A stretch of DNA of 64,000 nt. Origin: Candidatus Limnocylindrales bacterium (lineage in GTDB: Bacteria > Chloroflexota > Limnocylindria > Limnocylindrales > CSP1-4). Below the pieces are notes generated by a model that did not search any database, was not told the origin of the DNA, and saw only the letters and a list, made by a program, of their open reading frames with translations. Below are positions 4,649 to 57,311 of this stretch, in pieces. Location: positions 6,553 through 70,552 of the forward strand of contig JBEKPB010000010.1 in assembly GCA_049521175.1 (NCBI GenBank), read 5' to 3'. Every line of letters begins with the position of its first letter. Positions within the stretch are counted from its first letter, which is position 1. The position numbers and the translations under genes are program-made.

Positions 4649-5006
4649 CGCCCGTCCTCCTCCAGGACCGGGACGGGCAGGGCTCGCCAGTGGCTCGACG
4701 CGGTCCAGGCGGCCGGGGTGCGGGCCGCGCGTCAACATCTCCCGTCGATCGGGCCAGCCTGTGCCGAGTGGCTCCCCATGACACGTGCCGTCAGTCCCGA
4801 CCTGCGCTACCCGGGCGGTAGGGGCTGACTACCCCATGGAGTGGCGCGAGTTGGGATGACCGCCGGTGATCCCTGCGTCTTGGCCCTGGGCCGGGCCCGG
4901 CGGGCTTGGGTCCGACACGCTTCCGGACCCTCCCGACGCGTCCGCCGACTTTGAATGGACTGACGATGGTTTCATCGTGTCGAGTTCAGTCGGCCGGATT
5001 CCGGTT

Positions 5007-9150: not shown

Positions 9151-9280
9151 TCACAGAGGTATCGGCGCGCAACTCGTCTATCCCAGGCCCGCCCACCCCT
9201 TCGGGCCACAAGCGGCGTCGCCGGGATCAGTTTAGTGTGGCCGTCCGGCGCGAGTCATGCCGGGCCGGCAGGCGGTCTGC

Positions 9281-10279
9281 TCAGACGATGCCGAGGGGGC
9301 GCTCGATGGCGGCGTCGGCGCGGAACTGGCGATCGACCAGGACTCGAATGACGTAGTCGATCTCTAGGCCGGCGCCGTCGAACGAGGGCGCCGATCCGGC
9401 CGGTATGAGCAGCCGGGCCTCGGCTGAGCCGCTCGTCAGCGTTGCGGGATCCACGTCCGCTGACGCCACGATCCCCTCCGTTCCATTAGGGGCGTTCGTG
9501 CGGCGGTGGATCTCGATCCGGGCGCCACGGCCCGAAGGCGCCGACGGCCACGAAACCTTGACGTCGACCTCCTGGCCGGCCGGCGCAGGGAGAGGCGATA
9601 CGACGTCGATGGACCCGTCGCCCGCCTGCACGCTGGCCATGAGGCTCGTGCCACCCTGTTTGCCGACCCCGGCGCGCATCAGGTCCGGATGCTGGGCCAG
9701 CGGCAGATACGTCGCAGCCCAGTGGTCCGAGCCCATCGCGACGTCCCACCTGACCTCGAGAGCCCAGGCGATTATCGACTCGCCGAGGTGGGCCGTCGGC
9801 GGACCCAGCGGCGGGGCCGGGATGGCGAATTGAGCCTCCCAGCTCGCCCCGGGCTGAAGCTCGGTGGGAATTGGCGGTTCCAGGAATGCGTCCGTGCTGA
9901 ACAGCTTGCCCTCGGTCTCGACCCAGTGCTCGGTGTAGGTGACCTCGCCCTTCGCGTTGCGGTGGTCCTGCGACTTGCGAACCTCGTCGAGGCGCAGGCC
10001 GACGAGCCGCAGATATGCCTTGCGGGCCGAGACCGCCCGATACGCCGTCAATCGGATGTGACCGGTGATGCCGTCGCCCACCTGAGCCGGCGCCTCGAGC
10101 GTGAATTCGCCACCGACCGCACCGTCGGACGGGTTGAGGAGCTCTTCGGCGCTGACCGAATGAAGCGGATGGCTGCCTTGCGAGCCGGCCAGCCGCGGCC
10201 CGTTGAGGGCGTCGAATGGGGATGGGGCCGATCCCTTGTGACCCAGTGAGATGCCGGAGATTGATATGCCAGACAACAT
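9281..10279 (-). CDS. hypothetical protein (possible Spo0M/arrestin-like beta-sandwich)
   Basis: 332-aa ORF with its ATG preceded by GGAGGG. Two beta-rich halves. The fold suggestion is weak. Confidence 0.6.
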   Translation of the reverse strand: MLSGISISGISLGHKGSAPSPFDALNGPRLAGSQGSHPLHSVSAEELLNPSDGAVGGEFTLEAPAQVGDGITGHIRLTAYRAVSARKAYLRLVGLRLDEVRKSQDHRNAKGEVTYTEHWVETEGKLFSTDAFLEPPIPTELQPGASWEAQFAIPAPPLGPPTAHLGESIIAWALEVRWDVAMGSDHWAATYLPLAQHPDLMRAGVGKQGGTSLMASVQAGDGSIDVVSPLPAPAGQEVDVKVSWPSAPSGRGARIEIHRRTNAPNGTEGIVASADVDPATLTSGSAEARLLIPAGSAPSFDGAGLEIDYVIRVLVDRQFRADAAIERPLGIV

Positions 10280-44484: not shown

Positions 44485-45657
44485 TCAACCCTTGATCACG
44501 CCCAGCGGCGTGAGCCGGATAAGCGGGTGGAGCAGGTCGGAGGACGCCGTCATCACCTCTTCGATGTCCTTGTAGGCGAAGGCAGCCTCCTCGGCCACGT
44601 CCCGTGGCGAGGAGCACAGCAGCTCCACTCCCAGCTTCTTCATCTCCGCATAGACCTGGTCCGGCGACTTCTGTTTGCGCGCCGCGGTGCGGGACATCGC
44701 CCGACCCGCGCCGTGCTGGCAGGTCTCGAAAGCCTGCGGGTTGCCGAGCCCGGCGGCCACGTACGACGCCGTGCCCATGGAACCCGGGATCAGCACCGTC
44801 TCGCCGGCCCGGGCACGGACCGCGCCCTTGCGGTGCACGATGCCGTTCCGCCCACCGTGGTTCTCCCACGCCGCGTAGTTGTGGTGGATGTCGACCACTC
44901 GCTCCCAGGACGTCATCGCGGTGGCGCCCCGGAACGCAGCCTCGGCCGCGGCCATCATCCGCGCCCGGTTGACCTCGGCGAAACGCAGGGCGTATTCCAT
45001 GGCCGACCAGTACGCCTCGTATTCGGGCGTGCCGGTTGGGAGGGAGGACAGCTGCCTGTCGGGAAGCGGGGTGTGCCAGCGCTCGTTGAGCGCGAGAGCG
45101 CGCTTGTAGTACGCGTCGCAGATCGTCTTGCCCAGGCTTCGCGAGCCCGAGTGGAGCATCACGTAGACCCGGCCCTCGTCGTCCCGCTGGACTTCCAGGA
45201 AGTGGTTGCCCGATCCAAGGGTGCCGAGCTGGTCGATCGCGTGGTCGAACCAGGCCTTCTCGATCGACGCCGGCAGCTCGAGCCCGATCTCTCGTTCGGC
45301 TTCGACACGGTCGACATGGTGGCCGTGCGAGCGCAAGCCAGTGGGGACCGAATGCTCGATCGCCTCCAGCACCCGATCGAGCCGCCCGCGCTTGAGCTTC
45401 TCGACCGTGACGTCGGTTCGGGCGAGCGAGACGCCGCAGCCGATGTCGACCCCGATGCCGTAGGGCACGACCGCCGCGTCGGCGAAGAGCACCCCGCCGA
45501 TGGGCATGCCAAACCCCGAGTGAGTGTCGGGCATGAGCGCGATGTGGCTGATCGCGAACGGCAGGTTGGCCAGGTTGACGGCCTGGTCGTGGGCGCCCGG
45601 ATCGAGGCTGGGCGCCCAGCTCAGGATTGGGATTCGACCCTCGTCGAGGACCTTCAT
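44485..45657 (-). CDS. rtcB: RtcB family RNA ligase
   Basis: 390 aa containing HIALMPDTHSGFGMPIGGV...GVDIGCG...GSGNHF...SMGT...HGAGR. Confidence 0.9.
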   Translation of the reverse strand: MKVLDEGRIPILSWAPSLDPGAHDQAVNLANLPFAISHIALMPDTHSGFGMPIGGVLFADAAVVPYGIGVDIGCGVSLARTDVTVEKLKRGRLDRVLEAIEHSVPTGLRSHGHHVDRVEAEREIGLELPASIEKAWFDHAIDQLGTLGSGNHFLEVQRDDEGRVYVMLHSGSRSLGKTICDAYYKRALALNERWHTPLPDRQLSSLPTGTPEYEAYWSAMEYALRFAEVNRARMMAAAEAAFRGATAMTSWERVVDIHHNYAAWENHGGRNGIVHRKGAVRARAGETVLIPGSMGTASYVAAGLGNPQAFETCQHGAGRAMSRTAARKQKSPDQVYAEMKKLGVELLCSSPRDVAEEAAFAYKDIEEVMTASSDLLHPLIRLTPLGVIKG

Positions 45658-46329: not shown

Positions 46330-46776
46330 CTAGACGGCCTGCACCCAACGCGAGAACTCGCGCACCGTGCGTGGGCCAATCTGGACAGCGGCCCCTCGCT
46401 TGAACGACGTGCTGCCGAAGATGTGGACGTACCCGCCGAAATCCGAGGGCAGGTAGAAGTCGCCGTACTTCAGCATCGCCACTCGCGCCGCGCCCAGCCG
46501 CCCGTAGAAGTAGCCGAACTCGAACAGGACGTTCTGGTTTGGCACCTGAACGGTCTTACCTCTCACGGTCGAGTCGGCCTCCGGCGAGAAGACCATCAAC
46601 GCGGCGTCCACCTCATTGCCGATCGCGTCGAGGTCCTCGAGCAGGGTGCGCCCGGGAGTGAAGGCGTCCCACCACGGCAGGAATCTGAGGGTGGGCCCGG
46701 TGAACCTCTCGACCACCGCCCGTGCCTGCGACCTGGCTGCCGACGAGGACCCGATGAACAATGTCGTCTGAGGCAC
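46330..46776 (-). CDS. stand-alone TIR-like nucleotide-binding domain protein (COG4271 / CAP12-PycTIR-like)
   Basis: Pattern LFIGSSS...VDAALMVFSPE...VPNQNVLFEFGYFYGRLGAARVAMLKYGDFYLPSDFGGYVHI matches the TIR-like effector domain. GTG 46776 sits 7 nt after AGGAGGG. The track ORF extends to ATG 46890. Confidence 0.6.
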   Translation of the reverse strand: MPQTTLFIGSSSAARSQARAVVERFTGPTLRFLPWWDAFTPGRTLLEDLDAIGNEVDAALMVFSPEADSTVRGKTVQVPNQNVLFEFGYFYGRLGAARVAMLKYGDFYLPSDFGGYVHIFGSTSFKRGAAVQIGPRTVREFSRWVQAV

Positions 46777-46863
46777 GAACCGCCCTCCTGCTCTGGACCC
46801 CTGCAACCGTTCCTGTCTAGTTTCCGGCTCCGGGAATCCCTTGACAATGGTCCCGGGCCGGGT

Positions 46864-46909
46864 GATCATGCGACTTGATCGATAGATCATAGAACATGAT
46901 CATACGATC
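46864..46909. promoter_or_regulatory. AT-rich divergent intergenic segment with five GATC sites and TGATCA-type palindromes
   Basis: GTGATCATGCGACTTGATCGATAGATCATAGAACATGATCATACGATCAAG lies between the TIR-like gene and the wHTH-nucleotidyltransferase gene. The function assignment is inferred only from position and symmetry. Confidence 0.35.
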
Positions 46910-46935: not shown

Positions 46936-47487
46936 TTGCCCGTTCCGCTTCTATCCGGGGCAGTCGAGAGCGTCTGGAAGGTCATGGCGCTGAGCCCCGA
47001 GCGCCCGTTCTTCCAGCGCGAGCTAGCCCGATTGACCGCCGAGCCGTACAACGGCGTCGTCCAGGCGCTCCGCCGGCTGGTCCGAGATGGGCTCGTGACG
47101 ACCGGTTCGGTCGGCGGCAAGCCGGCGTTCTACGCCAACCGCATGGACCCTTACTTTGACGAGTTCCAGCGCATCGCCCTCAAGAGCCTCGGAATACCGG
47201 AGGCGCTGGACGCGCGCGGAGTCGTGGCGGTCAAGGTGGCCGTATTCGGGTCATTCGCCAAGGGGGTGGCCGGCCCTCAATCCGACCTCGACGTGCTCCT
47301 CGTCGGCAGCGAGCCCTCATCGGGCGCCGCCACCGCGGCCCTGGCGGAGATAAGCCGGAAGTTAGGCCGTCCGGTCAATGTCGTCGTCTATGACCATGCC
47401 CGATACCAGCAGGAACGAGAGGATGCGTCGAGCTTCGTGGCGGCGATCGCGAACGCCCCGATCGTGAATCTTCGCGGGACTCTCTGA
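46936..47487 (+). CDS. winged-helix plus minimal nucleotidyltransferase (MNT/Pol-beta superfamily) protein
   Basis: N-terminal wHTH-like RELARLTAEPYNGVVQALRRLVRDGLV. NTase motif VAVFGSFAKGVAGPQSDLDVLLVG. The start is TTG 46936 or ATG 46984. Confidence 0.7.
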   Translation: MPVPLLSGAVESVWKVMALSPERPFFQRELARLTAEPYNGVVQALRRLVRDGLVTTGSVGGKPAFYANRMDPYFDEFQRIALKSLGIPEALDARGVVAVKVAVFGSFAKGVAGPQSDLDVLLVGSEPSSGAATAALAEISRKLGRPVNVVVYDHARYQQEREDASSFVAAIANAPIVNLRGTL

Positions 47488-47695: not shown

Positions 47696-48085
47696 ATGCA
47701 GACGACATTGACCAGTCTCATCAAGGAGCGAGGGCAGACGTACGCGTCGATCGCCCACCGGACCGGTCTCCAGGCGCGAACGGTCCGAATGATCGCCACG
47801 GGCGAGACGCCGATGGACCGCGTCACGGTCGGGACCGTCCGGCAGATAGCAGCCGCCCTCGGCGTGACTGCCGCAGACCTGATCGAGCCCGCCTTGCCCT
47901 ATCCGGGCGACCCGGCACTCTCGCGGTCCGATCGCCTCTCGCATGCGATCCGCGAGGTGATGTGGGGGACCACGGCGCCCGAAGCCTACCCGTCGCCGGT
48001 CGAGTCGCTGGACGATCCGCTCGCCCATGTCCAGCCGGCCGACTTCTTCGCCGGAACCCAGGCCATCGATGCCGATCGGGGCTGA
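47696..48085 (+). CDS. XRE family HTH protein
   Basis: Starts LIKERGQTYASIAHRTGLQARTVRMIATGETPMDRVTVGTVRQIAAALGVTAADLI (HTH_3-like). Confidence 0.7.
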   Translation: MQTTLTSLIKERGQTYASIAHRTGLQARTVRMIATGETPMDRVTVGTVRQIAAALGVTAADLIEPALPYPGDPALSRSDRLSHAIREVMWGTTAPEAYPSPVESLDDPLAHVQPADFFAGTQAIDADRG

Positions 48086-48812
48086 AGCATATCGGCGGGT
48101 CGAGCCAGACGCCGAGCTTTCGTGCGGGGACATCGCCTACCTGACGTTGGCTCGTACCCGCGAACTGGGGGAGGCCCCTCCCGGCAACGCATACGATCCG
48201 GTCGGGCGCGTCCCGGCCTATCCCATGCCCGCGACGCTGGCTCTCGCCCACGGGCGCGAGGTCGCCGTCGACACGATGTTCGGCCTGGTGGTCACGCACT
48301 CGTGCGAGATCGACCGCCAGAAGAACCGTGGCGCAGACGAGGGCCACTGGGACTGCCGCCTCACCGTCGCACCGATAGTTCCGGAGCCACGCGTTCGGAT
48401 ACGTGGCGATACCGCGACGGAAACCGCCGACTGGGATGCGATCGCCGCGAACGTGCCCGTCGCCTCGCTCTATCTGCCTGGCGTGGCCGATCTTTCGGCG
48501 ATGGATCCGGAGCTGCCGGCGATGCCCTGGCCGCGCGCCTTCGCCGACCTGCGCGGTCTCTCGACAGTCTCACGGCAAATGGTCCGCGCCGATCGGCTCA
48601 TGGGGCTCTCGCCCGATTATCTCGGCGTGCTGCAGCGTCAGCTAGTCCGGTTCTTCGTCTGGCGGGATGTCGCGCGGCACGAGCAGGTGGAGGCGATGGT
48701 CGGCCGCCGGATCGTGTCGGCCATTCCTGCCAGCCCAAAGGGCGACCGCTTGGCCGTGGCGTTGACGGCCGACGACGGCAGCTCGATCACGGTGGAGTTG
48801 CTGGCGAGGTAG
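48069..48812 (+). CDS. hypothetical protein, overlaps the XRE gene by 17 nt
   Basis: ATG 48069 gives 247 aa. Contains GDIAYLTL...GLVVTHSCEIDRQ...RLTVAPIVPEP. No family recognised with confidence. Confidence 0.55.
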   Translation: MPIGAEAYRRVEPDAELSCGDIAYLTLARTRELGEAPPGNAYDPVGRVPAYPMPATLALAHGREVAVDTMFGLVVTHSCEIDRQKNRGADEGHWDCRLTVAPIVPEPRVRIRGDTATETADWDAIAANVPVASLYLPGVADLSAMDPELPAMPWPRAFADLRGLSTVSRQMVRADRLMGLSPDYLGVLQRQLVRFFVWRDVARHEQVEAMVGRRIVSAIPASPKGDRLAVALTADDGSSITVELLAR

Positions 48813-48985: not shown

Positions 48986-49801
48986 ATGGGGGAACTCGCC
49001 ATCGAGAGGAGCGCCAGGGCTCCGATCCGCGACGCCTTCAACGGCTGGTTCGTCACCCACGAGGTAGCGTGGGAGCTGGCGATGGCGGCGCTAGCGATCG
49101 TCTACGTGGCGCTCGGGTTCATCGTCGACGAGGCGACCTCCGAGCGCCCGGAGATCGCGGCAGCTGAACTCATCCTTACCGGCATCTTCGTCCTCGAATT
49201 CGGCTCGCGCATTCTCGCCGCTCGCAGCCGGCTCGCCTACTTCCGCGGCCACTGGATCGATGTCATCGCCCTCGCGCCCCCGATCCGCGTCGCCCGGGTC
49301 CTTCGGCTGCTGCGACTGCTTCGCCTCGTTCGAGCCTTCGCCGGCATCTATCGGGCCGGGATGCACGTCCACGGCCTGGCTCGACACAAGGGCTTCGCCT
49401 GGCTGCTGCTCGCCTGGCTCGGCGTCATGGCCGTCTGTTCGGCGTGGCTTTACATCGCCGAACACGGCGTCAACAAGGCGATCGACTCGCCGTTCGACGC
49501 GCTCTGGTGGGGCGTCGTCACCCTCACCACCGTCGGCTACGGCGACGTCACCCCGCTGACCACCGAGGGCCGCATCGCCGCCATGGCCCTGATGCTCCTC
49601 GGCATCGGCCTCTTCGGCGCCATCACCGCCACGATCACGAGCTACCTGCTTTCTCGCGACAGCCACCACGACCCGGACCACTCTCTAGCGGGCGACCTCG
49701 AACGGCTGGCGGCACTACATCGCTCGGGAGACCTGACGACGGACGAGTTCGCCGCCGCGAAAGGGCTGTTGATCAAGCATCCAAACAGCGGGCCGACATA
49801 G
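48986..49801 (+). CDS. voltage-sensor-type K+ channel with C-terminal SHOCT domain
   Basis: S4-like RVARVLRLLRLLRLVRAF and selectivity filter TTVGYGD. C-terminal LERLAALHRSGDLTTDEFAAAKGLL is a SHOCT-like short oligomerisation motif. Confidence 0.85.
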   Translation: MGELAIERSARAPIRDAFNGWFVTHEVAWELAMAALAIVYVALGFIVDEATSERPEIAAAELILTGIFVLEFGSRILAARSRLAYFRGHWIDVIALAPPIRVARVLRLLRLLRLVRAFAGIYRAGMHVHGLARHKGFAWLLLAWLGVMAVCSAWLYIAEHGVNKAIDSPFDALWWGVVTLTTVGYGDVTPLTTEGRIAAMALMLLGIGLFGAITATITSYLLSRDSHHDPDHSLAGDLERLAALHRSGDLTTDEFAAAKGLLIKHPNSGPT

Positions 49802-52102
49802 ATGTCAGGCGAGGATTGGAACCACGAGGTTACGGGGATCGTGGCTGACGCTCGCGCGTCCTTTGAGGTCCCGCCAGCCGTATTCAACCTGCGATCTCTG
49901 GGTTGGAAGTCATTCCAGGACCTGTGCGGTACCGTCCTGGGCGTGGTCTTGGGACAGACCGTTCAGCAGTTCCGGCCGACACGCGACGCAGGACGGGACC
50001 TCGCCTTCGAGGGTACCTGGAAGCCAATTGGCGGCGAGGTGCTCTCAGGCAAGTTCGTCGTCCAATGCAAGCACAAGGCGGACAAGGCCTTCTATCCATC
50101 AGATCTTGCCAAAGATCTGCCAAAGGCGAAGGCGCTCGTCCGGGCCGGTCGGTGCGAAACGTACGTTCTCATGACCAACGCGCCAATGACCGCGGCTACA
50201 GCCGGTGATATCGAGGATGCTCTCAGGAAATGTGGGGTTGTGCACCCCTTTGTCGTCGGGGGGGATCTGCTGGATCGATACATTCGAGAGACGCCGCGGC
50301 TGAGGGCCCTGGTGCCACGCCTGTACGGGCTTGGTGATCTCACGCAAGTGCTCGATCAGCGCAGATATGACCAAGCGATCGCTTTGCTTTCATCCATGCG
50401 CGATGAGATATCGAAGTTCGTTGTGACCGAGCCATACCGGAGGGCCGTCGAGGCACAGATGGAGCACGGGTTCGTGTTGCTCTTGGGCGCACCTGCTTCT
50501 GGCAAGTCGATGATCGCATCGGCTCTCGCGGCCGCCTCGATAGATATGTGGGGGTGTCGACCCATTCGGGCCGAAACGCCAGACTCTTTCATTGCATCCT
50601 GGAACCCCAATGAGCCCGACCAATTCTTCTGGTTCGACGATGCCTTTGGCTCGACTCAATACCGACAGCGACGTGCCGATGAGTGGAATGTGGTCCTACC
50701 GCAGCTTAGGGCGGCCATCAATCGTGGGGCCAGGTTCGTCATGACCTCACGAGACTACATTTGGGCTGATGCCCGTAACGACCTGAAGCTGAGCGCCTTC
50801 AGTCCTCTTGAGACGGGCCAGGTCGTGATTGATGTGCATGACCTTACTCCTGACAACAAGCGGCACATCCTATACAACCACCTGAAGTACGGCCAGCAGC
50901 CCAAATCTTTCCGCACCGCGGTCAAGCCTCTTCTCGAGCCAGTCGTGAGCGTCACGACCTTTCTGCCCGAGGTGGCCCGTCGACTTGGCGATCCCAACTT
51001 TACCAAGAGGCTGAAGCTGACTCAGGCCGAAGTCATCCGCTTCTTCGATCATCCCCTAGATCATCTGAAGGAGGTGGTGGCCGGGCTCGCTGCTGCCGAG
51101 TTTGCAGCCCTAACCCTATTGTTCATGGCTCAAGGTGAGAGATCGGCGCCGATTACGCCATCAAAGGACGAACTTGGCGCACTGCGCCGTCTCGGAGTGA
51201 GCCTTGCTGACGCCTTGGATGGTCTTCAGGCCCTTCGGGGAAGTCTTGTCGTACTCGGACCAGGCTCTTCGTCCCAGAGGAGCCTTCAGTGGTCTTTCAA
51301 GCATCCAACGATCGCGGATGCCGTGAGGACAAGAATCGCGGCGCGATACGAACTCCTTGAGATCTACCTGATGGGAGCGCCCGTGGCCGCGCTAGTCTCC
51401 GAAGTAACGTGCGGCAACACTCGAATCCCGGGAGCCCTAGTCATCCCAGAGCGCTTCTTCGCGCGAGTGGCGGCTAGGTTGAAGGAAGCGGAGCCCTCAT
51501 ATGAACTGAAGCTCGCAATCGCCAACTTCCTCGTCACCCGGTGCAGCAAGGACTTCCTAAGACTCCACGCCGGCGACCTACGAGATATCGAGATTGAGCC
51601 CGATGAGCCCGGTAGCGTCAGAATCGCCGGAAGGCTCAAGCGCCTGGGGCTTCTGTCAGAAACGACTCGCACCAAGATGGTTGCCCACTTCCAAGAACAA
51701 GCCGTTGATAACCTCGACTTACGCATTCTGACCGACGAGGCAGTCACGCAACTTGTCACGCCCTCCGAGCTCGAGGAAACAAAGACAATGCTTAGGGCCG
51801 AGGTGATAGATGGACTTCGGTGGTATATCGATGCCCAAAGGGATAACTACGATGGCGCGGAAGACCCAGACGACGTCGTATACGGCGTCCGCCTTACCCT
51901 CGAGGCGTTGATCGAGGAGTTCCCCGAAGACCAGGAAGTCGCTGCTGCCGTTACGGCGGCAGAACAAGACACTGACCGGCTGTATGAGAGCCTGCAGGAA
52001 TCATGGAGCGTTGGACCGGATGTGGACGACGATGATTGGCGCGACTACCGTGACTCCGCCAACTGGGTCCCGTCCTCGATATTCGATGACGTTGACGAAT
52101 AG
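49802..52102 (+). CDS. Mrr-cat (PD-(D/E)xK) nuclease fused to a STAND-type P-loop NTPase (NLR/Avs-like)
   Basis: The N-terminus GRDLAFEG...KFVVQCKH fits the D...(Q/E)xK Mrr-type core. Also present: Walker A GAPASGKS, Walker B FFWFDDAF, FVMTSRD, and winged-helix-like WSFKHPTIADAV. An approximately 260-aa helical C-terminal region ends in an acidic tail. The ATG directly follows the channel gene TAG. Four counted 60-nt lines give 50-62% GC, versus 72% in one counted channel-gene line. Confidence 0.75.
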   Translation: MSGEDWNHEVTGIVADARASFEVPPAVFNLRSLGWKSFQDLCGTVLGVVLGQTVQQFRPTRDAGRDLAFEGTWKPIGGEVLSGKFVVQCKHKADKAFYPSDLAKDLPKAKALVRAGRCETYVLMTNAPMTAATAGDIEDALRKCGVVHPFVVGGDLLDRYIRETPRLRALVPRLYGLGDLTQVLDQRRYDQAIALLSSMRDEISKFVVTEPYRRAVEAQMEHGFVLLLGAPASGKSMIASALAAASIDMWGCRPIRAETPDSFIASWNPNEPDQFFWFDDAFGSTQYRQRRADEWNVVLPQLRAAINRGARFVMTSRDYIWADARNDLKLSAFSPLETGQVVIDVHDLTPDNKRHILYNHLKYGQQPKSFRTAVKPLLEPVVSVTTFLPEVARRLGDPNFTKRLKLTQAEVIRFFDHPLDHLKEVVAGLAAAEFAALTLLFMAQGERSAPITPSKDELGALRRLGVSLADALDGLQALRGSLVVLGPGSSSQRSLQWSFKHPTIADAVRTRIAARYELLEIYLMGAPVAALVSEVTCGNTRIPGALVIPERFFARVAARLKEAEPSYELKLAIANFLVTRCSKDFLRLHAGDLRDIEIEPDEPGSVRIAGRLKRLGLLSETTRTKMVAHFQEQAVDNLDLRILTDEAVTQLVTPSELEETKTMLRAEVIDGLRWYIDAQRDNYDGAEDPDDVVYGVRLTLEALIEEFPEDQEVAAAVTAAEQDTDRLYESLQESWSVGPDVDDDDWRDYRDSANWVPSSIFDDVDE

Positions 52103-52348: not shown

Positions 52349-55300
52349 TTACGAGCAGCCGCTCGTGGAGCCGCAGTTGAGGCACTTGTAGCAGCTGCCG
52401 TTGCGGACCATGATCGAGCCGCATTCGGCGCAGGAGGGGGCGTCGGCCTGGGCCGCGAACGTGACCTGGGCCTTGCCGATGCCGAGGCTGCCGAGGGTGA
52501 CGCGGGCGGCGGCACCGTTGCCATTTCCGTTGGAGTGGCCGTTGTTGGCCCCTGAGCGAGGGGCGTCGTTCGGCCACTCTCTGGCGGGCGGCGGGGTGGG
52601 GGATTCGGAGCCCGGAGCTGCAACTGCCGTCGTTGGGCCGGCTTCGCCGGCATTGCCACTCGGCGCGGAAGCCGGCGCTGCGGCGCCAGATCCACCACTT
52701 CCTGAAGTCCCGGCGCCACCAGAATCTGCGGAGGACGAACCGCCGAGACCGAGGTTCAGCGGCTGCACCGAAGATTCCGCGGTCGCCGACCGGTCGACCA
52801 GACCAAGCGCAGCTCGTTCTTCGGGCGGCAGGAACCGCGAGCCCATCCAGCGGAAGATGTAGTCGATGATCGACTTGGCGATGGGAATCTCGGGATTCGA
52901 GGTGAAGCCCGACGGCTCGAAACGGACGTGGGCGAACTTGTGGACCAGGTCGTGCAGCGGCACCCCGTACTGGAGGGCGACGCTGACCGTGGTAGCGAAG
53001 GTGTCCATCAGGCCGCTGATCGTGGAGCCTTCCTTGGCCATCTTGAGGAAGATCTCGCCCGGCTGGCCGTCGTCGTAGAGGCCGACCGTTATGTAGCCCT
53101 CGTGGCCGGCGATGTCGAACTTGTGGGTGAGGGCACGGCGTTCGTCGGGGAGGCGGCGTCGGTACGGCTTCGGCTCGACCGGAGTCGGGGCTGCGACCGG
53201 CGCCGCCAGCTCAACCTCCTTGTCCTTCTTCTTGCCCGTCGAGAGGGGCTGTGATCGCTTCGAATTGTCGCGGTAGATCGCGATCGCCTTGAGGCCCATC
53301 CGCCAGCCCTCAAGGTAGACCGTCTCGATCTCGTCGGGCGTGGCCGCTTCGGGCATGTTGACCGTCTTGCTGATCGCGCCAGAGAGGAACGGCTGGACCG
53401 CCGACATCATCCGCAGGTGGCCCATGTAGTGGATGGAACGAGTGCCGTTCATCGGCTTGAAGGCGCAGTCGAAGACCGAAAGGTGCTCGGGCTTGAGCTC
53501 CGGGGCGCCTTCGATCGTCTCGCGGTCGTTGATGTAGGCCACGATCGAATCGACCTGCTCGGGCGTGTAGCCGAGCTTTCGCAGGGCGGCCGGCACGGTC
53601 TGGTTGACGATCTTGAGGAAGCCCTCGCCGACCAGCTTCTTGTACTTCACCAGGGCGATGTCCGGCTCGATGCCGGTGGTATCGCAATCCATCATAAATG
53701 AAATAGTGCCGGTTGGGGCCAACAGACTGGTTTGTGCATTTCTAAAGCCGTATAGGCGGCCCAAAGATAGAGTGTCGTCCCATATATCTCGTGCAGCGCG
53801 GTGCATGTCCGTGGGGACGCTCTGCTTGTCCGGGATGCCGTGGGCCGCGTCGCGATGCTTCTCGATGACGCGGAGGAACGGCTCCTCGTTCTTGCTGTAC
53901 TCGGCGAACGGGCCGCCGTGGTCGCGGGCCACGATCGCGCTCTGGCGGTATGCCTCCGCGGTCATGATCGAAGTGATGGCCGCAGCATATGCCTGGCCTT
54001 CGGGGGAGTCGTAGGCGAGGCCGCGGCTCATCAGCAGCGCACCGAGGTTGGCGTAGCCCAGGCCGAGGGGCCGGAACCGATGCGAGTTCTCCTCGATCTT
54101 GGGCGTCGGGTAACTCGCGTTGTCGACGAGTATCTCCTGGGCGGTGATGGTGACGCGGCAGGCGTACTCGAAGCCCGCCACATCAAATTCGCCGTCCTCG
54201 CGCACGAACTCCATCAGGTTGAGCGACGCTAAATTACAACTAGAATCGTTAATGAAGCTGTACTCACTGCAGGGGTTAGTGGCGTACTGCCGGGCCGAGT
54301 TGCTGACCGGGTTCCAGTCGTTGATCGTGGTGTCGTACTGGATGCCCGGGTCGCCGCAGACCCACGCCGCCTCGGCCATCTCGCGGAAAAGGTGGCGGGC
54401 CTTGTAGGTGTCCATTGGCTTCTCGTCGACCACGGAGCGCGTGGTCCACGTGCCGTCGTCCACCACGGCGCGCATGTAGTCGTCGGTCACGCGGACCGAG
54501 TGATTGGCGTTCTGGAACGCGACAGAGCCGTAGGCCTCGCCGGTGAAGGACGGGTCGTAGCCGGCCTCGATCAGGGCCCAGGCCTTCTTCTCCTCGCGGA
54601 GCTTGCAGTTGATGAACTCCTCGATGTCGGGGTGGGTGACGTCGAGGATCACCATCTTCGCCGCGCGGCGGGTCTTGCCGCCCGACTTGACCACGCCGGC
54701 GAACGCGTCGTAGCCGCGCATGAAGCTCACCGGGCCCGAGGCGGTGCCGCCGCCCGACATCTTCTCCTTGCTCGATCTCAGCGTGGAGAGGTTGGAGCCC
54801 GCGCCCGAGCCGAACTTGAACAGCATGGCCTCGGTCTTGGCCAGGTCCATGATCGAGCTCATCGAGTCCTGGACCGAGTTGATGAAGCAGGCCGAGCACT
54901 GCGGGTGCTCTTCCACGCCGACGTTGAACCAGACCGGCGAGTTGAACGCCATCTTCTGGTGGACGAGCAGGTGTGTCAGCTCGGCCTGGAACGCGCGCAG
55001 GTCTTCGTCCGTGGCGAAGTAATGCTGCGTCTCGGCCCAGCCGGCGATGGTGTTGACGACGCGGTCGATCAGCTGGCGGACACTCGTTTCGCGGCCGGCC
55101 GTGCCGACGTGGCCGCGGAAGTACTTGCTGACGACCACGTTCGTGGCCAGCTGGCTCCAGAATGCCGGGACCTCGACGCCCTTCTGCTCGAAGACGTTGA
55201 CGCCCTTCTCGTTGCCGATGCTGGCGGTCCGGATTTCCCACTCGATCTCGTCGTAGGGGTGGACGCCCGGCGTGGTCCAGCGGCGCGGGAAATGGAGGCC

Positions 55301-55555
55301 TTTGACGCCGATGCCGGTGAAGCGGCCGTCGGGGAGCATCGGGCCCGTGCCTTCAGCCATGACGGGGATCGTGGTGGCCGTGGCTGGGGCCGTGGCTCCG
55401 GCTGCGGCTCCGCTCGCTGGGGCTGCGGCTCCGGCTGCGGCTCCGGCCGGCGGGGTCGCGGCGGCCGTGGCTTCGGGGGTCGCGCTCGCGGGGGCGCTCG
55501 CTGCGGCTCGACTCATTTCCTGCACCTCTCTGGGCTCTGACTGGTGTTCGTTCAT
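52349..55555 (-). CDS. nrdJ: adenosylcobalamin-dependent ribonucleoside-diphosphate reductase (class II)
   Basis: 1068 aa. Contains TNPCSEY (thiyl-radical Cys loop) and LLAPTGTIS. A C-terminal Gly/Ser/Ala linker is followed by a CxxC...CxxC zinc ribbon. The alternative start ATG 55516 has a better SD (GAGGTGCAGGAA). Confidence 0.95.
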   Translation of the reverse strand: MNEHQSEPREVQEMSRAAASAPASATPEATAAATPPAGAAAGAAAPASGAAAGATAPATATTIPVMAEGTGPMLPDGRFTGIGVKGLHFPRRWTTPGVHPYDEIEWEIRTASIGNEKGVNVFEQKGVEVPAFWSQLATNVVVSKYFRGHVGTAGRETSVRQLIDRVVNTIAGWAETQHYFATDEDLRAFQAELTHLLVHQKMAFNSPVWFNVGVEEHPQCSACFINSVQDSMSSIMDLAKTEAMLFKFGSGAGSNLSTLRSSKEKMSGGGTASGPVSFMRGYDAFAGVVKSGGKTRRAAKMVILDVTHPDIEEFINCKLREEKKAWALIEAGYDPSFTGEAYGSVAFQNANHSVRVTDDYMRAVVDDGTWTTRSVVDEKPMDTYKARHLFREMAEAAWVCGDPGIQYDTTINDWNPVSNSARQYATNPCSEYSFINDSSCNLASLNLMEFVREDGEFDVAGFEYACRVTITAQEILVDNASYPTPKIEENSHRFRPLGLGYANLGALLMSRGLAYDSPEGQAYAAAITSIMTAEAYRQSAIVARDHGGPFAEYSKNEEPFLRVIEKHRDAAHGIPDKQSVPTDMHRAARDIWDDTLSLGRLYGFRNAQTSLLAPTGTISFMMDCDTTGIEPDIALVKYKKLVGEGFLKIVNQTVPAALRKLGYTPEQVDSIVAYINDRETIEGAPELKPEHLSVFDCAFKPMNGTRSIHYMGHLRMMSAVQPFLSGAISKTVNMPEAATPDEIETVYLEGWRMGLKAIAIYRDNSKRSQPLSTGKKKDKEVELAAPVAAPTPVEPKPYRRRLPDERRALTHKFDIAGHEGYITVGLYDDGQPGEIFLKMAKEGSTISGLMDTFATTVSVALQYGVPLHDLVHKFAHVRFEPSGFTSNPEIPIAKSIIDYIFRWMGSRFLPPEERAALGLVDRSATAESSVQPLNLGLGGSSSADSGGAGTSGSGGSGAAAPASAPSGNAGEAGPTTAVAAPGSESPTPPPAREWPNDAPRSGANNGHSNGNGNGAAARVTLGSLGIGKAQVTFAAQADAPSCAECGSIMVRNGSCYKCLNCGSTSGCS

Positions 55556-55953
55556 CTTCGGGGCGTCTTCAGCGGTTCATGTTCTTGGGAGCGGCGCGGG
55601 CGGCGGTGGAGTGGATTGGCGAGTGGCTTCGTGTGTGGCGTGGCGCGGAGTCGGGCAACCGGAACGACCGACACTGCTCTGATGGGCAGTCGCCGCTTGT
55701 TCCTCGCATCTGCGGGCCGGCCGACCTCCACGTCTGTCGCCGGTCCGCCCATCCCTTCGCCGGTTATCCGTGCCGATCGCCGCGAGTCGGGCGGCGTCCG
55801 GGTCTCGAGTGGCCGGTCGAAGTGGTGGTGACGATAGCTGCGAGTGCTCTGGCGATTTGCCTCCCGACGGGGGCTTGGGGCGCCGATCCGGCCGACTCTC
55901 CGTGGCCTCGTCGACGCCTTCCGGGTCCTCTCGGCAACCCGGCCGACCGATGG

Positions 55954-55983
55954 AATGTACGCCTGCCGTCCTGCCACAGTCAA
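55954..55983 (-). promoter_or_regulatory. candidate sigma-70-like promoter for nrdJ
   Basis: On the minus strand, TTGACT (55983-55978), an 18-nt spacer, then TACATT (55959-55954). It lies 9 bp downstream of the NrdR-like box and implies a leader of about 390 nt. Confidence 0.35.
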
Positions 55984-55992
55984 GTCCCAAAA

Positions 55993-56040
55993 CCACAACA
56001 TCTTGTGGTATCCCGTTGCTTGCAACCACCATATCTAGGT
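55993..56040 (-). promoter_or_regulatory. NrdR-box-like palindrome plus a second degenerate box about 31 bp away
   Basis: Box 1 is CCACAAGATGTTGTGG on the gene strand (55993-56008), about 12 of 16 matches to the published acaCwAtATaTwGtgt consensus. Box 2 (56024-56039, CCTAGATATGGTGGTT) matches about 9 of 16. Centre-to-centre distance is 31 bp, as expected for tandem NrdR boxes. Confidence 0.5.
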
Positions 56041-56191
56041 CGCGGGCTGCCGTCGGTGGAGATCCGCCACGGGCACGTGGACCGGCTGCGGACGCCGTGT
56101 GGACGCCGTGTGGACCGTCCGATCGACCTTGTCCACGCCGCTCTCCGAGGGCACCGCAAGCGGCCTTGTCGTGGGTCGTGTGCGGCATCTC

Positions 56192-56212
56192 TAGAACGAG
56201 CGTTCTATTCTA
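56192..56212 (-). promoter_or_regulatory. LexA (Cheo/SOS)-box-like palindrome adjoining a TAGAAT -10 hexamer
   Basis: TAGAAC-GAGC-GTTCTA (56192-56207) has the GAAC-N4-GTTC core of Gram-positive/actinobacterial SOS boxes. On the minus strand TAGAAT (56212-56207) overlaps it by 1 nt. Confidence 0.4.
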
Positions 56213-56254
56213 CCACAGAGCGAGGCGGTCGGACTTCGTGTGGTGCGGCGCGGT

Positions 56255-56403
56255 TCGTGGCCCGTGGCACCGAGCGGATGCCCCGGAGGCGCCGCCGGCG
56301 ACTCCGGACCGCCTTGCTGCCCGCTGCCACGGCGGGTCGTGGCCCGTGGCACCGAGCGGATGCCCCCGGAGGCGCCGCCGGCGACTCCGGACCGCCTTGC
56401 TGC
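56255..56403. repeat. two direct copies (66 and 67 bp, period 82 bp) of a GC-rich repeat with an internal hairpin
   Basis: Copies at 56255-56320 and 56337-56403 read TCGTGGCCCGTGGCACCGAGCGGATGCCCCGGAGGCGCCGCCGGCGACTCCGGACCGCCTTGCTGC and differ by one extra C. Each contains CCGGAG...CTCCGG. Confidence 0.9.
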
Positions 56404-56426
56404 ACTCGGCCGTCTTTGGTCACCGC

Positions 56427-57311
56427 CTACTTTCCGCGGTTTACCGATGGGGGCGGTGCTAAATCGGATGGTGGCACGCGAGGGCCCGCCTTTGGACTCA
56501 GTGGCGCCCGCGTGTCCCGTTCCGAAGCACCCTCTGAGCGTGGCTGCGGCGCGTTGGCCCCGCGCCGAGTCGCTCGAACCCGCCTCGTGGGCAGAACGTT
56601 CCGCATAGCACCGCCTCCGTCGGTATCTCGGAGAAACCAGACGCCGCGGAGGTTTCCGACGGGCCGACCGACCCAGTGATGCACGGCCCACGTTCGAAGC
56701 GGTAGCGATGCCGATACCAGTCCGGAATGGCGGTGCACGAGGTCGCGATGCGTCGAGGCGTCAGGCAGGAGCAGGACCACTCCAACAAGACGCGGCTGCC
56801 AACCACGAGCAACCCGCATCGCCGCGGGCACGACCCTCGATTTCATGTCGAGGATCCGGAGCGTCTCCTCGAGCCTCGTGATCTCGGTCTTGACCTCGAC
56901 GATCAAAAGGGCGTTGCAGTCCTGGCGCCACGCCAGCACGTCGACCGAACCTCGCTCACCAAAGCGGTTGAACGATTCCTCACTGCGGACCTCCCAGCCC
57001 AGTCGCGTGAGGAGCTCGACAGTCCGGTTCTGGAGCAGGGCGTGCCTTCGATCAAGAAGGCGGTCGAGCTTGGGACCACGCCACCGCGGTGCCAGTGCGA
57101 TGTCGGCGTCGAGAACTTCCGCTACCCGGCAGTACGTGTCGACCGACAGCGAGCCAAATCGCCCGCACTCGATATCCGACACGGTCTGCTGCGAGACCCC
57201 GGCGCGGGCGGCGACGTCGGCCTGCCGCAGTCGCATCTCGACGCGGATGGCCCGGAACGTGTTTCCGATGTGGACACGGTCCATCGGCGGAGGATGAGCG
57301 GCGGCGCTCAC
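56427..57311 (-). CDS. XRE-HTH protein fused to a PD-(D/E)xK (YraN/restriction-endonuclease-like) domain
   Basis: N-terminal LRQADVAARAGVSQQTVSDIECGR, then GERGSVDVLAW...ALLIVEVKT (D...ExK pattern). Start is GTG 57311 or ATG 57284. There is a long basic C-terminal tail. Confidence 0.6.
   Translation of the reverse strand: MSAAAHPPPMDRVHIGNTFRAIRVEMRLRQADVAARAGVSQQTVSDIECGRFGSLSVDTYCRVAEVLDADIALAPRWRGPKLDRLLDRRHALLQNRTVELLTRLGWEVRSEESFNRFGERGSVDVLAWRQDCNALLIVEVKTEITRLEETLRILDMKSRVVPAAMRVARGWQPRLVGVVLLLPDASTHRDLVHRHSGLVSASLPLRTWAVHHWVGRPVGNLRGVWFLRDTDGGGAMRNVLPTRRVRATRRGANAPQPRSEGASERDTRAPLSPKAGPRVPPSDLAPPPSVNRGK

Follow-up and report, generated by a model that had tools for sequence, protein, structure and literature searches.

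What does a compact, low-GC gene encode that lies between a K+ channel gene and the ribonucleotide reductase gene nrdJ in a Candidatus Limnocylindrales genome? The window, a 64,000-nucleotide stretch of contig JBEKPB010000010.1, carries at this site an intact open reading frame of 766 codons (49802..52102, ATG start) on the plus strand, to which all features of the protein given below also belong. The translated frame, Pfam, PADLOC and an AF2 model (pLDDT 85.4 and pTM 0.71 at full length) describe a protein consisting of an Mrr_cat nuclease domain, an nSTAND3 STAND NTPase and a helical C-terminal domain. With a probability of roughly 65%, we interpret it as a single-protein NLR-like (Avs-type) anti-phage sensor-effector, which was horizontally acquired into a defence hotspot beside nrdJ. 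This reading is based on the architecture, the fold, the invariant motifs, the precedent of Avs proteins, a defence-rich context, a foreign base composition and the replacement of alleles at the site.

GC content is 0.586 in the gene (GC3 0.670) and 0.681 in the remainder of the window, in agreement with the low GC noted in the original prediction. In a 1-kb composition profile, the value is 0.58 across 50-52 kb and approximately 0.68 to both sides, and genuine adjacent genes show GC3 values of 0.82-0.90 compared to 0.67 for the STAND gene. The ATG at 49802 directly follows the TAG that ends the channel gene upstream, and no clear ribosome-binding site precedes it. Promoter and terminator scans at the gene were uninformative. 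The N-terminus (aa 1-29, 49802..49888) is variable and probably disordered (pLDDT 35-37 for aa 1-23), and residue conservation among the homologues starts at about aa 27. The true start codon is therefore uncertain, with a GTG at 49844 as an alternative.

The predicted effector is an Mrr-type PD-(D/E)xK nuclease domain (aa 30-165, 49889..50296). Its Pfam Mrr_cat match (aa 30-133) only narrowly clears the gathering threshold of 21 with 22.8 bits, but PF04471 is also found among the precomputed annotations of several homologues, PADLOC models of the REase type match the N-terminus, and a Foldseek search connected the nuclease region with MspJI and Cap4. The assignment relies on Pfam, PADLOC and the fold, because searches of PDB sequences with the single protein (phmmer), a full-length profile and an N-terminal profile retrieved nothing meaningful. 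The catalytic core D62-x-G64-x-D66 ... Q88-C-K90 (49985..50071) overlaps with the block GRDLAFEG...KFVVQCKH (aa 64-91) highlighted originally, and its residues D62, G64, D66, Q88 and K90 are invariant in an alignment of 119 homologues. An N-terminal Mrr_cat domain with invariant D66, Q88 and K90 is the effector arrangement expected of Avs proteins in the broad sense. Position 39 counts against this reading, since it is occupied by Gln throughout the family where an acidic residue of helix 1 is common in the fold.

A highly conserved linker, LRxLVPRxYGLGDLxxxLDxRxYxQA (aa 166-205, 50297..50416; pLDDT 64-66), with invariant L167, R168, V171, P172, Y175, G178, D179 and Q191, joins the nuclease to the NTPase. 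The latter matches Pfam nSTAND3 (PF20720) over aa 206-362 with an E-value of 1.8e-38 and 132 bits (threshold 27.2), covering positions 1-154 of the 155 in the profile, and PF20720 is carried by all 120 homologues listed. The P-loop nucleotide-binding domain (NBD; aa 206-345, 50417..50836) shows an alternating strand/helix pattern in the model. It contains the Walker A motif GAPASGKS (aa 229-236, 50486..50509; G229, G234 and K235 invariant), the Walker B motif FFWFDDAF (aa 275-282, 50624..50647; W277, D279, D280 and F282 invariant) and a TSRD motif (aa 315-318, 50744..50755), in which R317 is invariant and T315, S316 and D318 are nearly so. We take this arginine to be sensor-1-like, as is typical of STAND NTPases. 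The following helical domain (HD; aa 346-445, 50837..51136) is all-helical in the model and has ILYNH and FLPExARR motifs with invariant I356, Y358, N359, H360, P389, E390 and R393. In the winged-helix domain (WHD; aa 446-515, 51137..51346), the model places strands at 483-487 and 495-499 and a helix at 502-513, and the motif W497-x-F-K-H501-P502, with W497, H501 and P502 invariant, may be analogous to the MHD motif. Thus, alignment and model together reveal the features that define a STAND protein: the NBD-HD-WHD order, both Walker motifs, a sensor arginine and a conserved winged-helix His.

The motifs quoted in the original prediction, including GAPASGKS, FFWFDDAF, FVMTSRD (aa 312-318), the winged-helix-like WSFKHPTIADAV (aa 497-508) and the acidic end DVDDDDWRDY...IFDDVDE (aa 740-766), are all present in the translation. 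Given the significant nSTAND3 and Mrr_cat matches and the invariance of the residues in 119 homologues, they go beyond chance resemblance. This invariance was counted in sequences with an overall identity of only 40-58%, and the conserved catalytic and nucleotide-binding motifs point to purifying selection on function.

A Foldseek search of PDB with the full model found Avs4 (8dgf, 1.5e-7) and Avs3 (8dgc, 2.6e-7) as the best matches, as the original prediction of an Avs-like protein had anticipated, with the Dark apoptosome and the plant NRC3 resistosome among the further top matches; in a viral library, the top match was an NLR-like phage protein. Like the present protein, EcAvs4 and SeAvs3 combine an N-terminal PD-(D/E)xK nuclease (Mrr or Cap4) with a central STAND NTPase and a C-terminal alpha-helical region, and they are encoded by single genes in defence islands. 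The Cap4 or Mrr nuclease domains of Avs3, Avs4 and Avs7 form active sites upon tetramerisation (bioRxiv 10.64898/2026.08.25.746987). However, no sequence similarity to Avs3 or Avs4 was detectable by phmmer or a profile search of PDB, the NTPase is of the nSTAND3 clade, unlike theirs, and the protein has 766 residues compared to 1534 (Avs4) and 2004 (Avs3) in the deposited chains. The part after the WHD comprises approximately 220 aa plus a conserved acidic tail, whereas Avs3 and Avs4 have a long TPR solenoid.

The NTPase family PF20720 is shared with Avs5, and PaAvs5 is predicted to adopt a closed autoinhibited conformation with its C-terminal region folded onto the ATPase (bioRxiv 10.1101/2025.07.08.663546). 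Avs5, Avs6 and Avs9 are grouped together by structural similarity to SAMD9/9L; they are much larger, with TPR, Sel1, PPR or OB sensors, and use SIR2 (NADase), PNP or AlbA_2 effectors instead of Mrr. The present protein showed no Pfam match to SIR2 and no match to the PADLOC Avs5 model. A scan of PADLOC-DB v2 at E ≤ 1 matched no AVAST (Avs1-5) model, which counts against the Avs-type reading; its sole hits were PDC-S73, two Aga REase models and TRIP13. PDC-S73, itself a candidate defence system, was the top match in the defence database, in favour of the original prediction, with an E-value of 4.8e-24 (profile positions 4-340 of 752 to aa 28-371). Its profile length is close to that of the present family, and it shares the Mrr and NTPase half, but its HD/WHD and C-terminal half do not align. 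Because the alignment is limited to profile positions 4-340, the family is best regarded, at the level of sequence, as a sister of PDC-S73 and not as a member.

The nuclease fold and the D...QxK catalytic motif are also those of Mrr and other Type IV restriction endonucleases, and the protein might be a Type IV (modification-dependent) or McrBC-like NTP-dependent restriction nuclease, which protects without killing the host. The helical C-terminal or Mrr domain would then directly recognise foreign or modified DNA, and the NTPase would provide a switching or translocating activity. Type IV restriction enzymes have Mrr_cat as their catalytic domain, and in addition to the MspJI match, some of the more distant plasmid homologues (H22-H30) are annotated as "restriction endonuclease", restriction-modification systems are frequent neighbours of the gene, and the sensor lacks the size needed to wrap around a phage protein as the Avs TPR sensors do. 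However, Type IV Mrr proteins have an N-terminal winged-helix DNA-binding domain followed by Mrr_cat and lack an NTPase switch, whereas here the nuclease is N-terminal and followed by an NLR-type switch, so that only the catalytic domain corresponds. The NBD-HD-WHD module has its best fold matches among Avs3, Avs4, Apaf-1-like and plant NLR proteins and not among McrB or helicase motors, a Pfam scan detected nothing recognisable as a domain that binds DNA or modified bases (SRA, winged-helix Mrr-N, YTH and similar), and the characterised Mrr-STAND fusions (Avs4) work by trigger-induced oligomerisation (bioRxiv 10.64898/2026.08.25.746987). We consider a restriction function unlikely.

Sensing in the Avs-type reading would fall to the C-terminal all-alpha domain (aa 516-738, 51347..52015), which was modelled separately with a pLDDT of 85.2. 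It has no Pfam match, including TPR. At approximately 220 aa, it falls well short of the TPR sensors in characterised Avs proteins, which agrees with the short region described originally and counts against the Avs-type reading. A Foldseek search of PDB with this domain alone gave no match below an E-value of 0.14, and the weak matches were to generic helical repeats only. When its profile was searched against 1.8 billion representatives, 1040 clusters (50% identity) were found, and the domain is confined to the present architecture, where it invariably forms the C-terminal part of proteins no longer than 835 aa; many short matches look like contig-end fragments. That it recognises a phage protein is an assumption, because it is small and has no structural relative. 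It is followed by an acidic spacer of low confidence (aa 739-756, 52016..52069; pLDDT <50), variable in length and sequence, and by a conserved tail ending in SSIFDDVDE (aa 757-766, 52070..52099) with invariant F761, D763 and D765. The family consensus of the tail is R-S-I-F-D-D-[VI]-D, and the motif occurs in approximately 75 of 80 genome loci. The tail appears to dock on the N-terminal nuclease/NTPase modules, because its pLDDT, about 85 at full length, falls to 43-52 in the model of the C-terminal domain by itself. What is new here, as far as the model goes, is a helical C-terminal domain of approximately 250 aa which has no PDB fold match and ends in an invariant tail.

The constancy of this tail across phyla within a variable helical domain suggests another possibility, in which the protein acts as a guard or bait: the acidic tail and/or the conserved linker would sense a phage factor or a perturbed host process by being monitored for binding, displacement or cleavage, and the trigger would not be a structural phage protein caught by the helical domain. 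The modelled docking on the N-terminal half is compatible with this, as is the host-factor dependence of Avs7, which incorporates EF-Tu according to a 2026 survey (PMC13581612). In a subclade, the protein may cooperate with an adjacent SMC-like ATPase, since an SMC/LmuB-like gene is located directly upstream in the same orientation, often overlapping, in 11 of 80 loci. Nevertheless, this reading is pure inference, with no covariation signal (the tail being invariant) and no partner in the majority of loci, and a simple autoinhibitory latch accounts for the invariant tail equally well; a guard or bait function is therefore a doubtful alternative. It is likewise improbable, in our estimate, that the R-S-I-F-D-D-[VI]-D peptide, and not a large repeat sensor, detects infection as a latch or bait on the nuclease/NTPase half, with the switch firing when the tail is displaced, captured or cleaved by a phage or perturbed host factor.

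The family is uniform, with a length of about 755 aa and more than 2300 database clusters, and its distribution is wide and patchy: homologues are found in at least 415 species of many phyla and on 37 plasmids, on which the full-length matches listed are annotated as "hypothetical protein". E. coli genomes searched with the DNA of an enterobacterial (Huaxiibacter) copy contained no homologue. The NCBIfam scan of the 766-aa protein returned no family match, and in the searchable literature, nothing turned up on PDC-S73 or the Mrr_cat/nSTAND3/helical C-terminal architecture, nor any report of phage defence or trigger-induced oligomerisation by such proteins. Of the original suggestion of an undescribed subtype, the uncharacterised status stands, but the family is very large and already included in PF20720 and partly in PDC-S73; it is uncharacterised rather than unseen. 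Compact STAND proteins are not rare, because only 34,990 of 178,641 defence-clade STAND proteins in the 2026 survey have at least 400 aa C-terminal of the NTPase (PMC13581612). The survey covers 589 clades and 684 sensor clusters, and Lee et al. 2026 defined Avs7-Avs24 and 90 sensor structural clusters using sensors of at least 400 aa (PMC13581612). With approximately 404 aa C-terminal of the Pfam NTPase domain, the present protein is borderline with respect to this cut-off.

Most annotated contexts of the homologues contain defence or toxin-antitoxin genes, so that the look at defence islands proposed originally came out in favour of the prediction. The neighbours include type I restriction-modification, SLFN_AlbA_2, GIY-YIG, AbiE (with AbiEi/AbiEii 4 bp upstream of a conjugative plasmid copy), Fic, a helicase with a RecB-like nuclease, SIR2 with an ATPase, HipA, HEPN, HNH, OLD-TOPRIM with UvrD, nSTAND5, TIR_2 and methyltransferases. 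Besides the LmuB-like (Lamassu-like) genes, OLD-like (OLD/Gabija-like) genes occur in 7 of 80 loci. Within the window, 3 kb upstream of the STAND gene, there are a CAP12/Pycsar-type TIR gene and a PDC-M05A-like nucleotidyltransferase. PADLOC families matched around the STAND homologues numbered 249, compared to 79 in a size-matched control around nrdJ (~3-fold), although single-model PADLOC matches carry a substantial background, which counts against the defence reading, as do several housekeeping neighbourhoods. Even the commonest neighbour family recurs in no more than 14% of 80 loci, which points to a single-gene system.

The housekeeping neighbourhoods, together with stable inheritance between the window and a related genome (L001) and the capacity of STAND clades to switch between defence and non-defence roles (PMC13581612), would fit a STAND ATPase in signalling or regulation or a selfish addiction module carried by mobile elements, with the nuclease in another role. 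We regard this as very improbable, given the intact and invariant nuclease triad, neighbourhoods rich in defence and toxin-antitoxin genes, the lack of Pfam matches to HTH or other output domains of regulatory STANDs, and a hotspot allelic turnover typical of immune genes.

This turnover is seen at the site itself, which is bordered upstream by an Ion_trans/Ion_trans_2 K+ channel gene with a SHOCT tail (48986..49801, plus strand; Pfam) and downstream by the conserved class II (B12-dependent) ribonucleotide reductase gene nrdJ (52349..55555, minus strand; translation). NrdJ of loci L085-88 is 85% identical and has Ribonuc_red Pfam domains. The channel gene is syntenic in L001, and a 185-bp remnant of it is left in L085 and L005. 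In the related genomes L085, L005 and L006, the site between nrdJ and the channel remnant holds a 43-46% identical allele in the opposite orientation. This marks the site as a defence hotspot where divergent members of one family take each other's place. Horizontal acquisition, as originally proposed, is supported by the low GC3, the spread over at least 415 species and many phyla, the 37 plasmids and this allele replacement. Counting against it, the 85% orthologue in L001 is as diverged as its surroundings (80% nucleotide identity in the STAND gene and 83% in the flanks), which indicates that the gene has been in this lineage for a while and was passed on vertically. No tRNA and no convincing flanking direct or inverted repeats were found around the gene, no integrase was present among the scanned window ORFs, and scans of the surroundings of nrdJ and of the 3' end for RNA elements were negative. 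A functional link to nrdJ was rejected, as 80 loci with NrdJ at 55-73% identity had no STAND or channel gene nearby; its adjacency is a lineage-specific insertion site. Finally, although the channel stop codon adjoins the STAND ATG with no terminator in between (in an uninformative scan) and a channel gene also accompanies the STAND gene of L001 and L004, with a remnant in L085, a co-transcribed, translationally coupled two-gene unit with the channel as co-effector or regulator is hardly credible, as two other genes separate the pair in L001, the channel of L004 lies beyond a GIY-YIG gene and is encoded on the other strand, L085 and L005 keep an intact STAND gene with the channel remnant only, and approximately 75 other loci have no channel.

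According to the Avs-type reading, the protein would persist in the uninfected cell as a closed nucleotide-bound monomer with the C-terminal helical domain folded back, and the RSIFDD(V/I)D tail, docked on the nuclease/NTPase half, would keep the Mrr domains apart and inactive. Release from the closed state would come with a signal of infection, most probably the binding of a conserved phage protein to the helical domain of approximately 220 aa, whereupon the nSTAND3 NTPase would bind ATP and promote oligomerisation. The Mrr domains could then pair to form active PD-(D/E)xK sites (D66/Q88/K90), and indiscriminate DNA degradation would stop the phage and kill or arrest the cell. The protein thus probably kills phage-infected cells by abortive infection; the kind of trigger, the formation of oligomers, the DNA substrate and the role of the tail as a latch are the steps that we infer.

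According to the 2026 survey, Avs proteins read most of the core phage proteome, and systematic work has centred on sensors of at least 400 aa, leaving most defence-clade STANDs unexamined (PMC13581612). The present gene is a clean representative of a very large family of compact STAND proteins, the 1040 clusters described above. Its trigger and the role of its tail, once found, would reveal by what means a minimal NLR detects an infection, and they could yield a small portable nuclease switch. If true, sensing by the tail would represent a guard/decoy-like mode of which no example has so far been described among NLR-like proteins of bacteria, and it might explain how many of the short-sensor STANDs that are unclassified in the survey function (PMC13581612).

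The gene at 49802..52102 (+), with the coordinates and the length of 766 aa given in the original prediction, is an intact ORF with an ATG start in both the ORF list and the translation. All sequence features quoted there were recovered in the translated protein, including GRDLAFEG...KFVVQCKH (aa 64-91), GAPASGKS (aa 229-236), FFWFDDAF (aa 275-282), FVMTSRD (aa 312-318), WSFKHPTIADAV (aa 497-508), and the acidic C-terminus ...DVDDDDWRDY...SSIFDDVDE. The low GC content of the gene is also real (GC 0.586, GC3 0.670), compared with a GC of 0.681 in the remaining window and a GC3 of 0.82-0.90 in the neighbouring genes identified by codon-position GC. In the 1-kb profile of the window, GC dips at 50-52 kb, where it is 0.58. 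Uncertainty is limited to the start codon, with GTG at 49844 as a possible alternative: the ATG directly abuts the TAG stop codon of the upstream K+ channel gene, and conservation in the family starts at about aa 27.

In Pfam, nSTAND3 (PF20720) matches aa 206-362 of this STAND protein at 1.8e-38, and Mrr_cat (PF04471) matches aa 30-133 at 1.1e-4 with 22.8 bits, barely over the gathering score of 21. NCBIfam contains no family match, and searches of PDB sequences, profiles included, returned none. In the confident AlphaFold2 model built with 119 homologues (pLDDT 85.4, pTM 0.71), the nuclease domain has an alpha/beta fold and spans aa 30-165. A linker (aa 166-205) connects it to the P-loop domain (aa 206-345), after which come a helical domain (aa 346-445), a winged helix (aa 446-515), an all-alpha C-terminal domain (aa 516-738), a disordered acidic spacer and a short ordered tail. 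Foldseek comparison of this model with the PDB placed Avs4 (8dgf, 1.5e-7) and Avs3 (8dgc, 2.6e-7) at the top, with the Dark apoptosome and the tomato NRC3 resistosome ranking next, and the nuclease part matches MspJI and Cap4. The top fold match in the viral library is an NLR-like phage protein.

The STAND protein belongs to a large family of striking uniformity. At E <= 1e-3 it has matches in more than 2304 clusters, and the best 120 of these matches have about 720-790 aa (with two shorter exceptions), 87-100% query coverage and 40-58% identity. Relatives are encoded by at least 415 species-level genomes, and the hosts are found in Acidimicrobiales, Chloroflexota, Nitrospirota, Acidobacteriota, all classes of Pseudomonadota, Bacteroidota, Cyanobacteria, Planctomycetota and Verrucomicrobiota. 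Family matches are also present on 37 plasmids (15 conjugative); among those listed, the annotated full-length matches are named "hypothetical protein" and the more distant partial matches carry other names. In a phage search, the family was essentially absent from phages. Culturable hosts with a homologue include Huaxiibacter chinensis (L022), Vibrio atypicus (L031), Stenotrophomonas (L060), Ralstonia (L034) and Flavobacterium piscis (L061). Alignment of 119 sequences revealed invariant D62, G64, D66, Q88 and K90, which represent the Mrr D...QxK core, as well as invariant G229, G234, K235, D279, D280, R317, W497, H501 and P502. The linker sequence LRxLVPRxYGLGDLxxxLDxRxYxQA (aa 167-192) has the highest conservation in the protein, yet the lowest in-domain model confidence.

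The C-terminal domain was modelled confidently on its own (pLDDT 85.2) and has no PDB relative in Foldseek (best E 0.14, generic helical repeats). A search with its profile matched 1040 clusters built at 50% identity, 353 of them at E <= 1e-30; the domain is always C-terminal in these and the full-length matches have 740-835 aa. The best 150 profile matches contain no other architecture, and the domain is thus a clade-specific module. An invariant R-S-I-F-D-D-[VI]-D motif (F761, D763, D765) marks the extreme C-terminus of the family; about 75 of 80 genome loci encode it, either terminally or within about 10 residues of the end. This tail has a pLDDT of 43-52 when modelled with the C-terminal domain alone versus about 85 in the full-length model. 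Because its confidence is high only in the full-length context, the tail is predicted to pack on residues 1-515 and not on its own domain, which would place it on the half of the protein that holds the catalytic modules.

In the window, the STAND gene is located between the K+ channel gene (48986-49801, +; Ion_trans, Ion_trans_2 and a C-terminal SHOCT domain in Pfam) and the convergent nrdJ gene (52349-55555, -), whose translation is a class II ribonucleotide reductase. The site at the nrdJ 3' end is variable, as seen from comparison of the window (~40.1/42.9-52.3 kb) with the homologue-carrying genome loci L085, L005, L006 and L001. L001 and L002 have a STAND orthologue 85% identical to that of the window in a syntenic locus. 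Two added genes between the channel and STAND genes of L001 are missing from the window, one (8636-9397) encoding a 253-aa protein with an HSDR_N_2 domain (type I restriction R-subunit N-terminal, nuclease-like) and the other (9419-9856) a 145-aa protein with no domain match. In L085-L088 and L005, conservation extends over nrdJ and the genes on its far side (NrdJ of L085-L088 shows 85% identity over 1006 aa), the channel gene is reduced to a 185-bp remnant (L085 and L005), and between nrdJ and the remnant lies a family member only 45% identical to that of the window (43-46% among the L085, L005 and L006 alleles) and in opposite orientation. L006 carries a third allele (67% identical to the L085 type, 43% to that of the window), also oriented opposite to the window's, between nrdJ and a block located 12 kb away in the window; where the window has ~12 kb, this locus has nothing but the STAND gene. 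All alleles at the site have a GC of 0.59-0.63, below the 0.66-0.69 of the flanks. Together these features are characteristic of a defence hotspot whose alleles turn over. The site shows neither a tRNA nor an integrase, nor are there flanking repeats. An Ion_trans/Ion_trans_2-SHOCT channel also flanks the STAND gene in L001 (7645-8616) and L004 (13116-13898, -; 47% identity, strand opposite to the STAND gene) and is absent from about 75 other STAND loci; it most likely belongs to the core sequence flanking the hotspot, although it may co-travel with the STAND gene. A functional link between the STAND gene and nrdJ was rejected, with 80 loci encoding NrdJ at 55-73% identity having no STAND or channel gene nearby.

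NrdJ itself has an Ala/Thr/Pro-rich low-complexity N-terminus (~60 aa) and a ~110-aa Gly/Ser/Ala/Pro-rich stretch followed by a CxxC...CxxC zinc-ribbon-like C-terminal end. The ~0.9 kb upstream of nrdJ (55556-56430) lacks ORFs whose codon-position GC is typical and has no Rfam match, but L085 shares part of this stretch. Elsewhere in the window, Rfam identified a c-di-GMP-II-GCG riboswitch aptamer variant at 4667-4749 (-) (RF03170, 56.1 bits, E 1.7e-7, over the gathering score).

A small defence-like cluster is located ~3 kb upstream of the STAND gene. It includes a 186-aa CAP12/Pycsar-effector-type TIR protein (46330-46890, -; PF10137 at 1.5e-20; PADLOC CBASS TIR effector, PycTIR and PDC-S35), a divergent nucleotidyltransferase gene (46936-47487, +; PADLOC candidate PDC-M05A, 6e-33), a Cro/C1-type HTH gene (47696-48085, +) and an unannotated ORF of 261 aa (48027-48812). 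A CAP12-type TIR gene is also found near the STAND homologue of L094. The same variable region contains an RtcB RNA ligase gene (44485-45657, -; Pfam 6e-114). Since RtcB repairs cleaved tRNA and rRNA, its proximity to defence-type genes may not be accidental.

In other genomes, STAND homologues have neighbours that include type I restriction-modification, SLFN_AlbA_2, GIY-YIG and AbiE genes. AbiEi/AbiEii lies 4 bp upstream of a homologue on a conjugative Bradyrhizobium plasmid, and Fic, a helicase with a RecB-like nuclease, and SIR2 with an ATPase are found beside homologues on Piscirickettsia plasmids. Further homologues adjoin HipA and a resolvase; HEPN, HNH and OLD-TOPRIM with UvrD; a CAP12-type TIR, an integrase and a terminase; or nSTAND5, TIR_2, methyltransferases and type I restriction-modification genes. 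Clustering of 525 neighbour ORFs from 80 loci revealed no partner gene in more than 14% of loci. OLD/GajA/AriA-like ATPase-TOPRIM genes adjoin the STAND gene in seven of the 80 (L020, L032, L036, L048, L060, L074, L079), and in L009, L011, L033 and L089 the gene directly upstream encodes a HipA-like kinase. A co-oriented gene for an SMC/LmuB-like ATPase (680-1060 aa) is present in 11 of the 80 loci (L013, L017, L024, L035, L039, L045, L066, L069, L029, L067, L081), mostly directly upstream and often overlapping by a few bases; in L069 it is not upstream, and in L017 an opposite-strand gene intervenes. In L017 and L066 the STAND gene follows an apparently complete Lamassu A-C-B operon, and each of the remaining SMC-like loci encodes one long SMC-like protein that is extended at the N-terminus. 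The arrangement may represent a functional pairing in one subclade. For comparison, 139 neighbour ORFs (48.9 kaa) match 249 PADLOC families at 1e-8, and 113 control ORFs (48.8 kaa) from the nrdJ surroundings of unrelated loci match 79, mainly generic helicase/AAA cross-hits. The defence enrichment near STAND genes is real but should not be overstated, and certain homologue neighbourhoods are plainly housekeeping.

Architecture, conservation, fold, distribution and context support the interpretation of the gene as an Avs-/NLR-like defence protein, and are the observed basis of the best-supported model, in which it is an Avs-type switch that aborts infection. We assign this whole model a probability of about 0.65, and the narrower claim of a defence gene a higher one. 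The protein would exist as a closed monomer until an infection cue at the C-terminal domain releases it; the nSTAND3 module would then drive ATP-dependent oligomerisation, pairing Mrr domains into active sites that would degrade DNA and abort infection. The trigger, oligomer, substrate and latch role of the tail are inferred. Several of the steps have a precedent: Avs5, with the same Pfam NTPase, has a predicted closed form with the C-terminal region folded onto the ATPase (bioRxiv 10.1101/2025.07.08.663546), and in Avs3, Avs4 and Avs7 the Cap4 or Mrr nuclease active sites arise on tetramerisation (bioRxiv 10.64898/2026.08.25.746987).

It is unlikely that the protein is instead a Type IV-like NTP-dependent restriction enzyme sensing DNA directly, and a tail-centred guard or bait mechanism, or cooperation with the SMC-like neighbour, is equally doubtful. 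A non-defence role is highly improbable. The least probable proposal is that the STAND gene and abutting channel form a functional pair, against which their variable arrangement in relatives argues.

Like Avs4, the proposed Avs-type switch has the Mrr-STAND-sensor order and would work alike; it shares an NTPase clade with Avs5, but has no SIR2 effector. None of the AVAST models in PADLOC matches it even at E <= 1. The best PADLOC match, PDC-S73 (4.8e-24), is a single-gene candidate, predicted only, and aligns only over the nuclease and NTPase half of its profile (positions 4-340 of 752). The sensor of the STAND protein is small and lacks a structural match, and the protein belongs to none of the named types compared here. 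A 2026 STAND survey (Lee et al. 2026, PMC13581612) has 589 clades and 90 sensor families and excluded sensors below 400 aa, a cut-off at which this family is borderline. The family is already computationally catalogued, yet uncharacterised. An Mrr-STAND gene in a defence hotspot is unsurprising to a specialist; what makes this protein a reasonable experimental target is that its family is large and compact and has an invariant tail, which appears to dock on the catalytic half.
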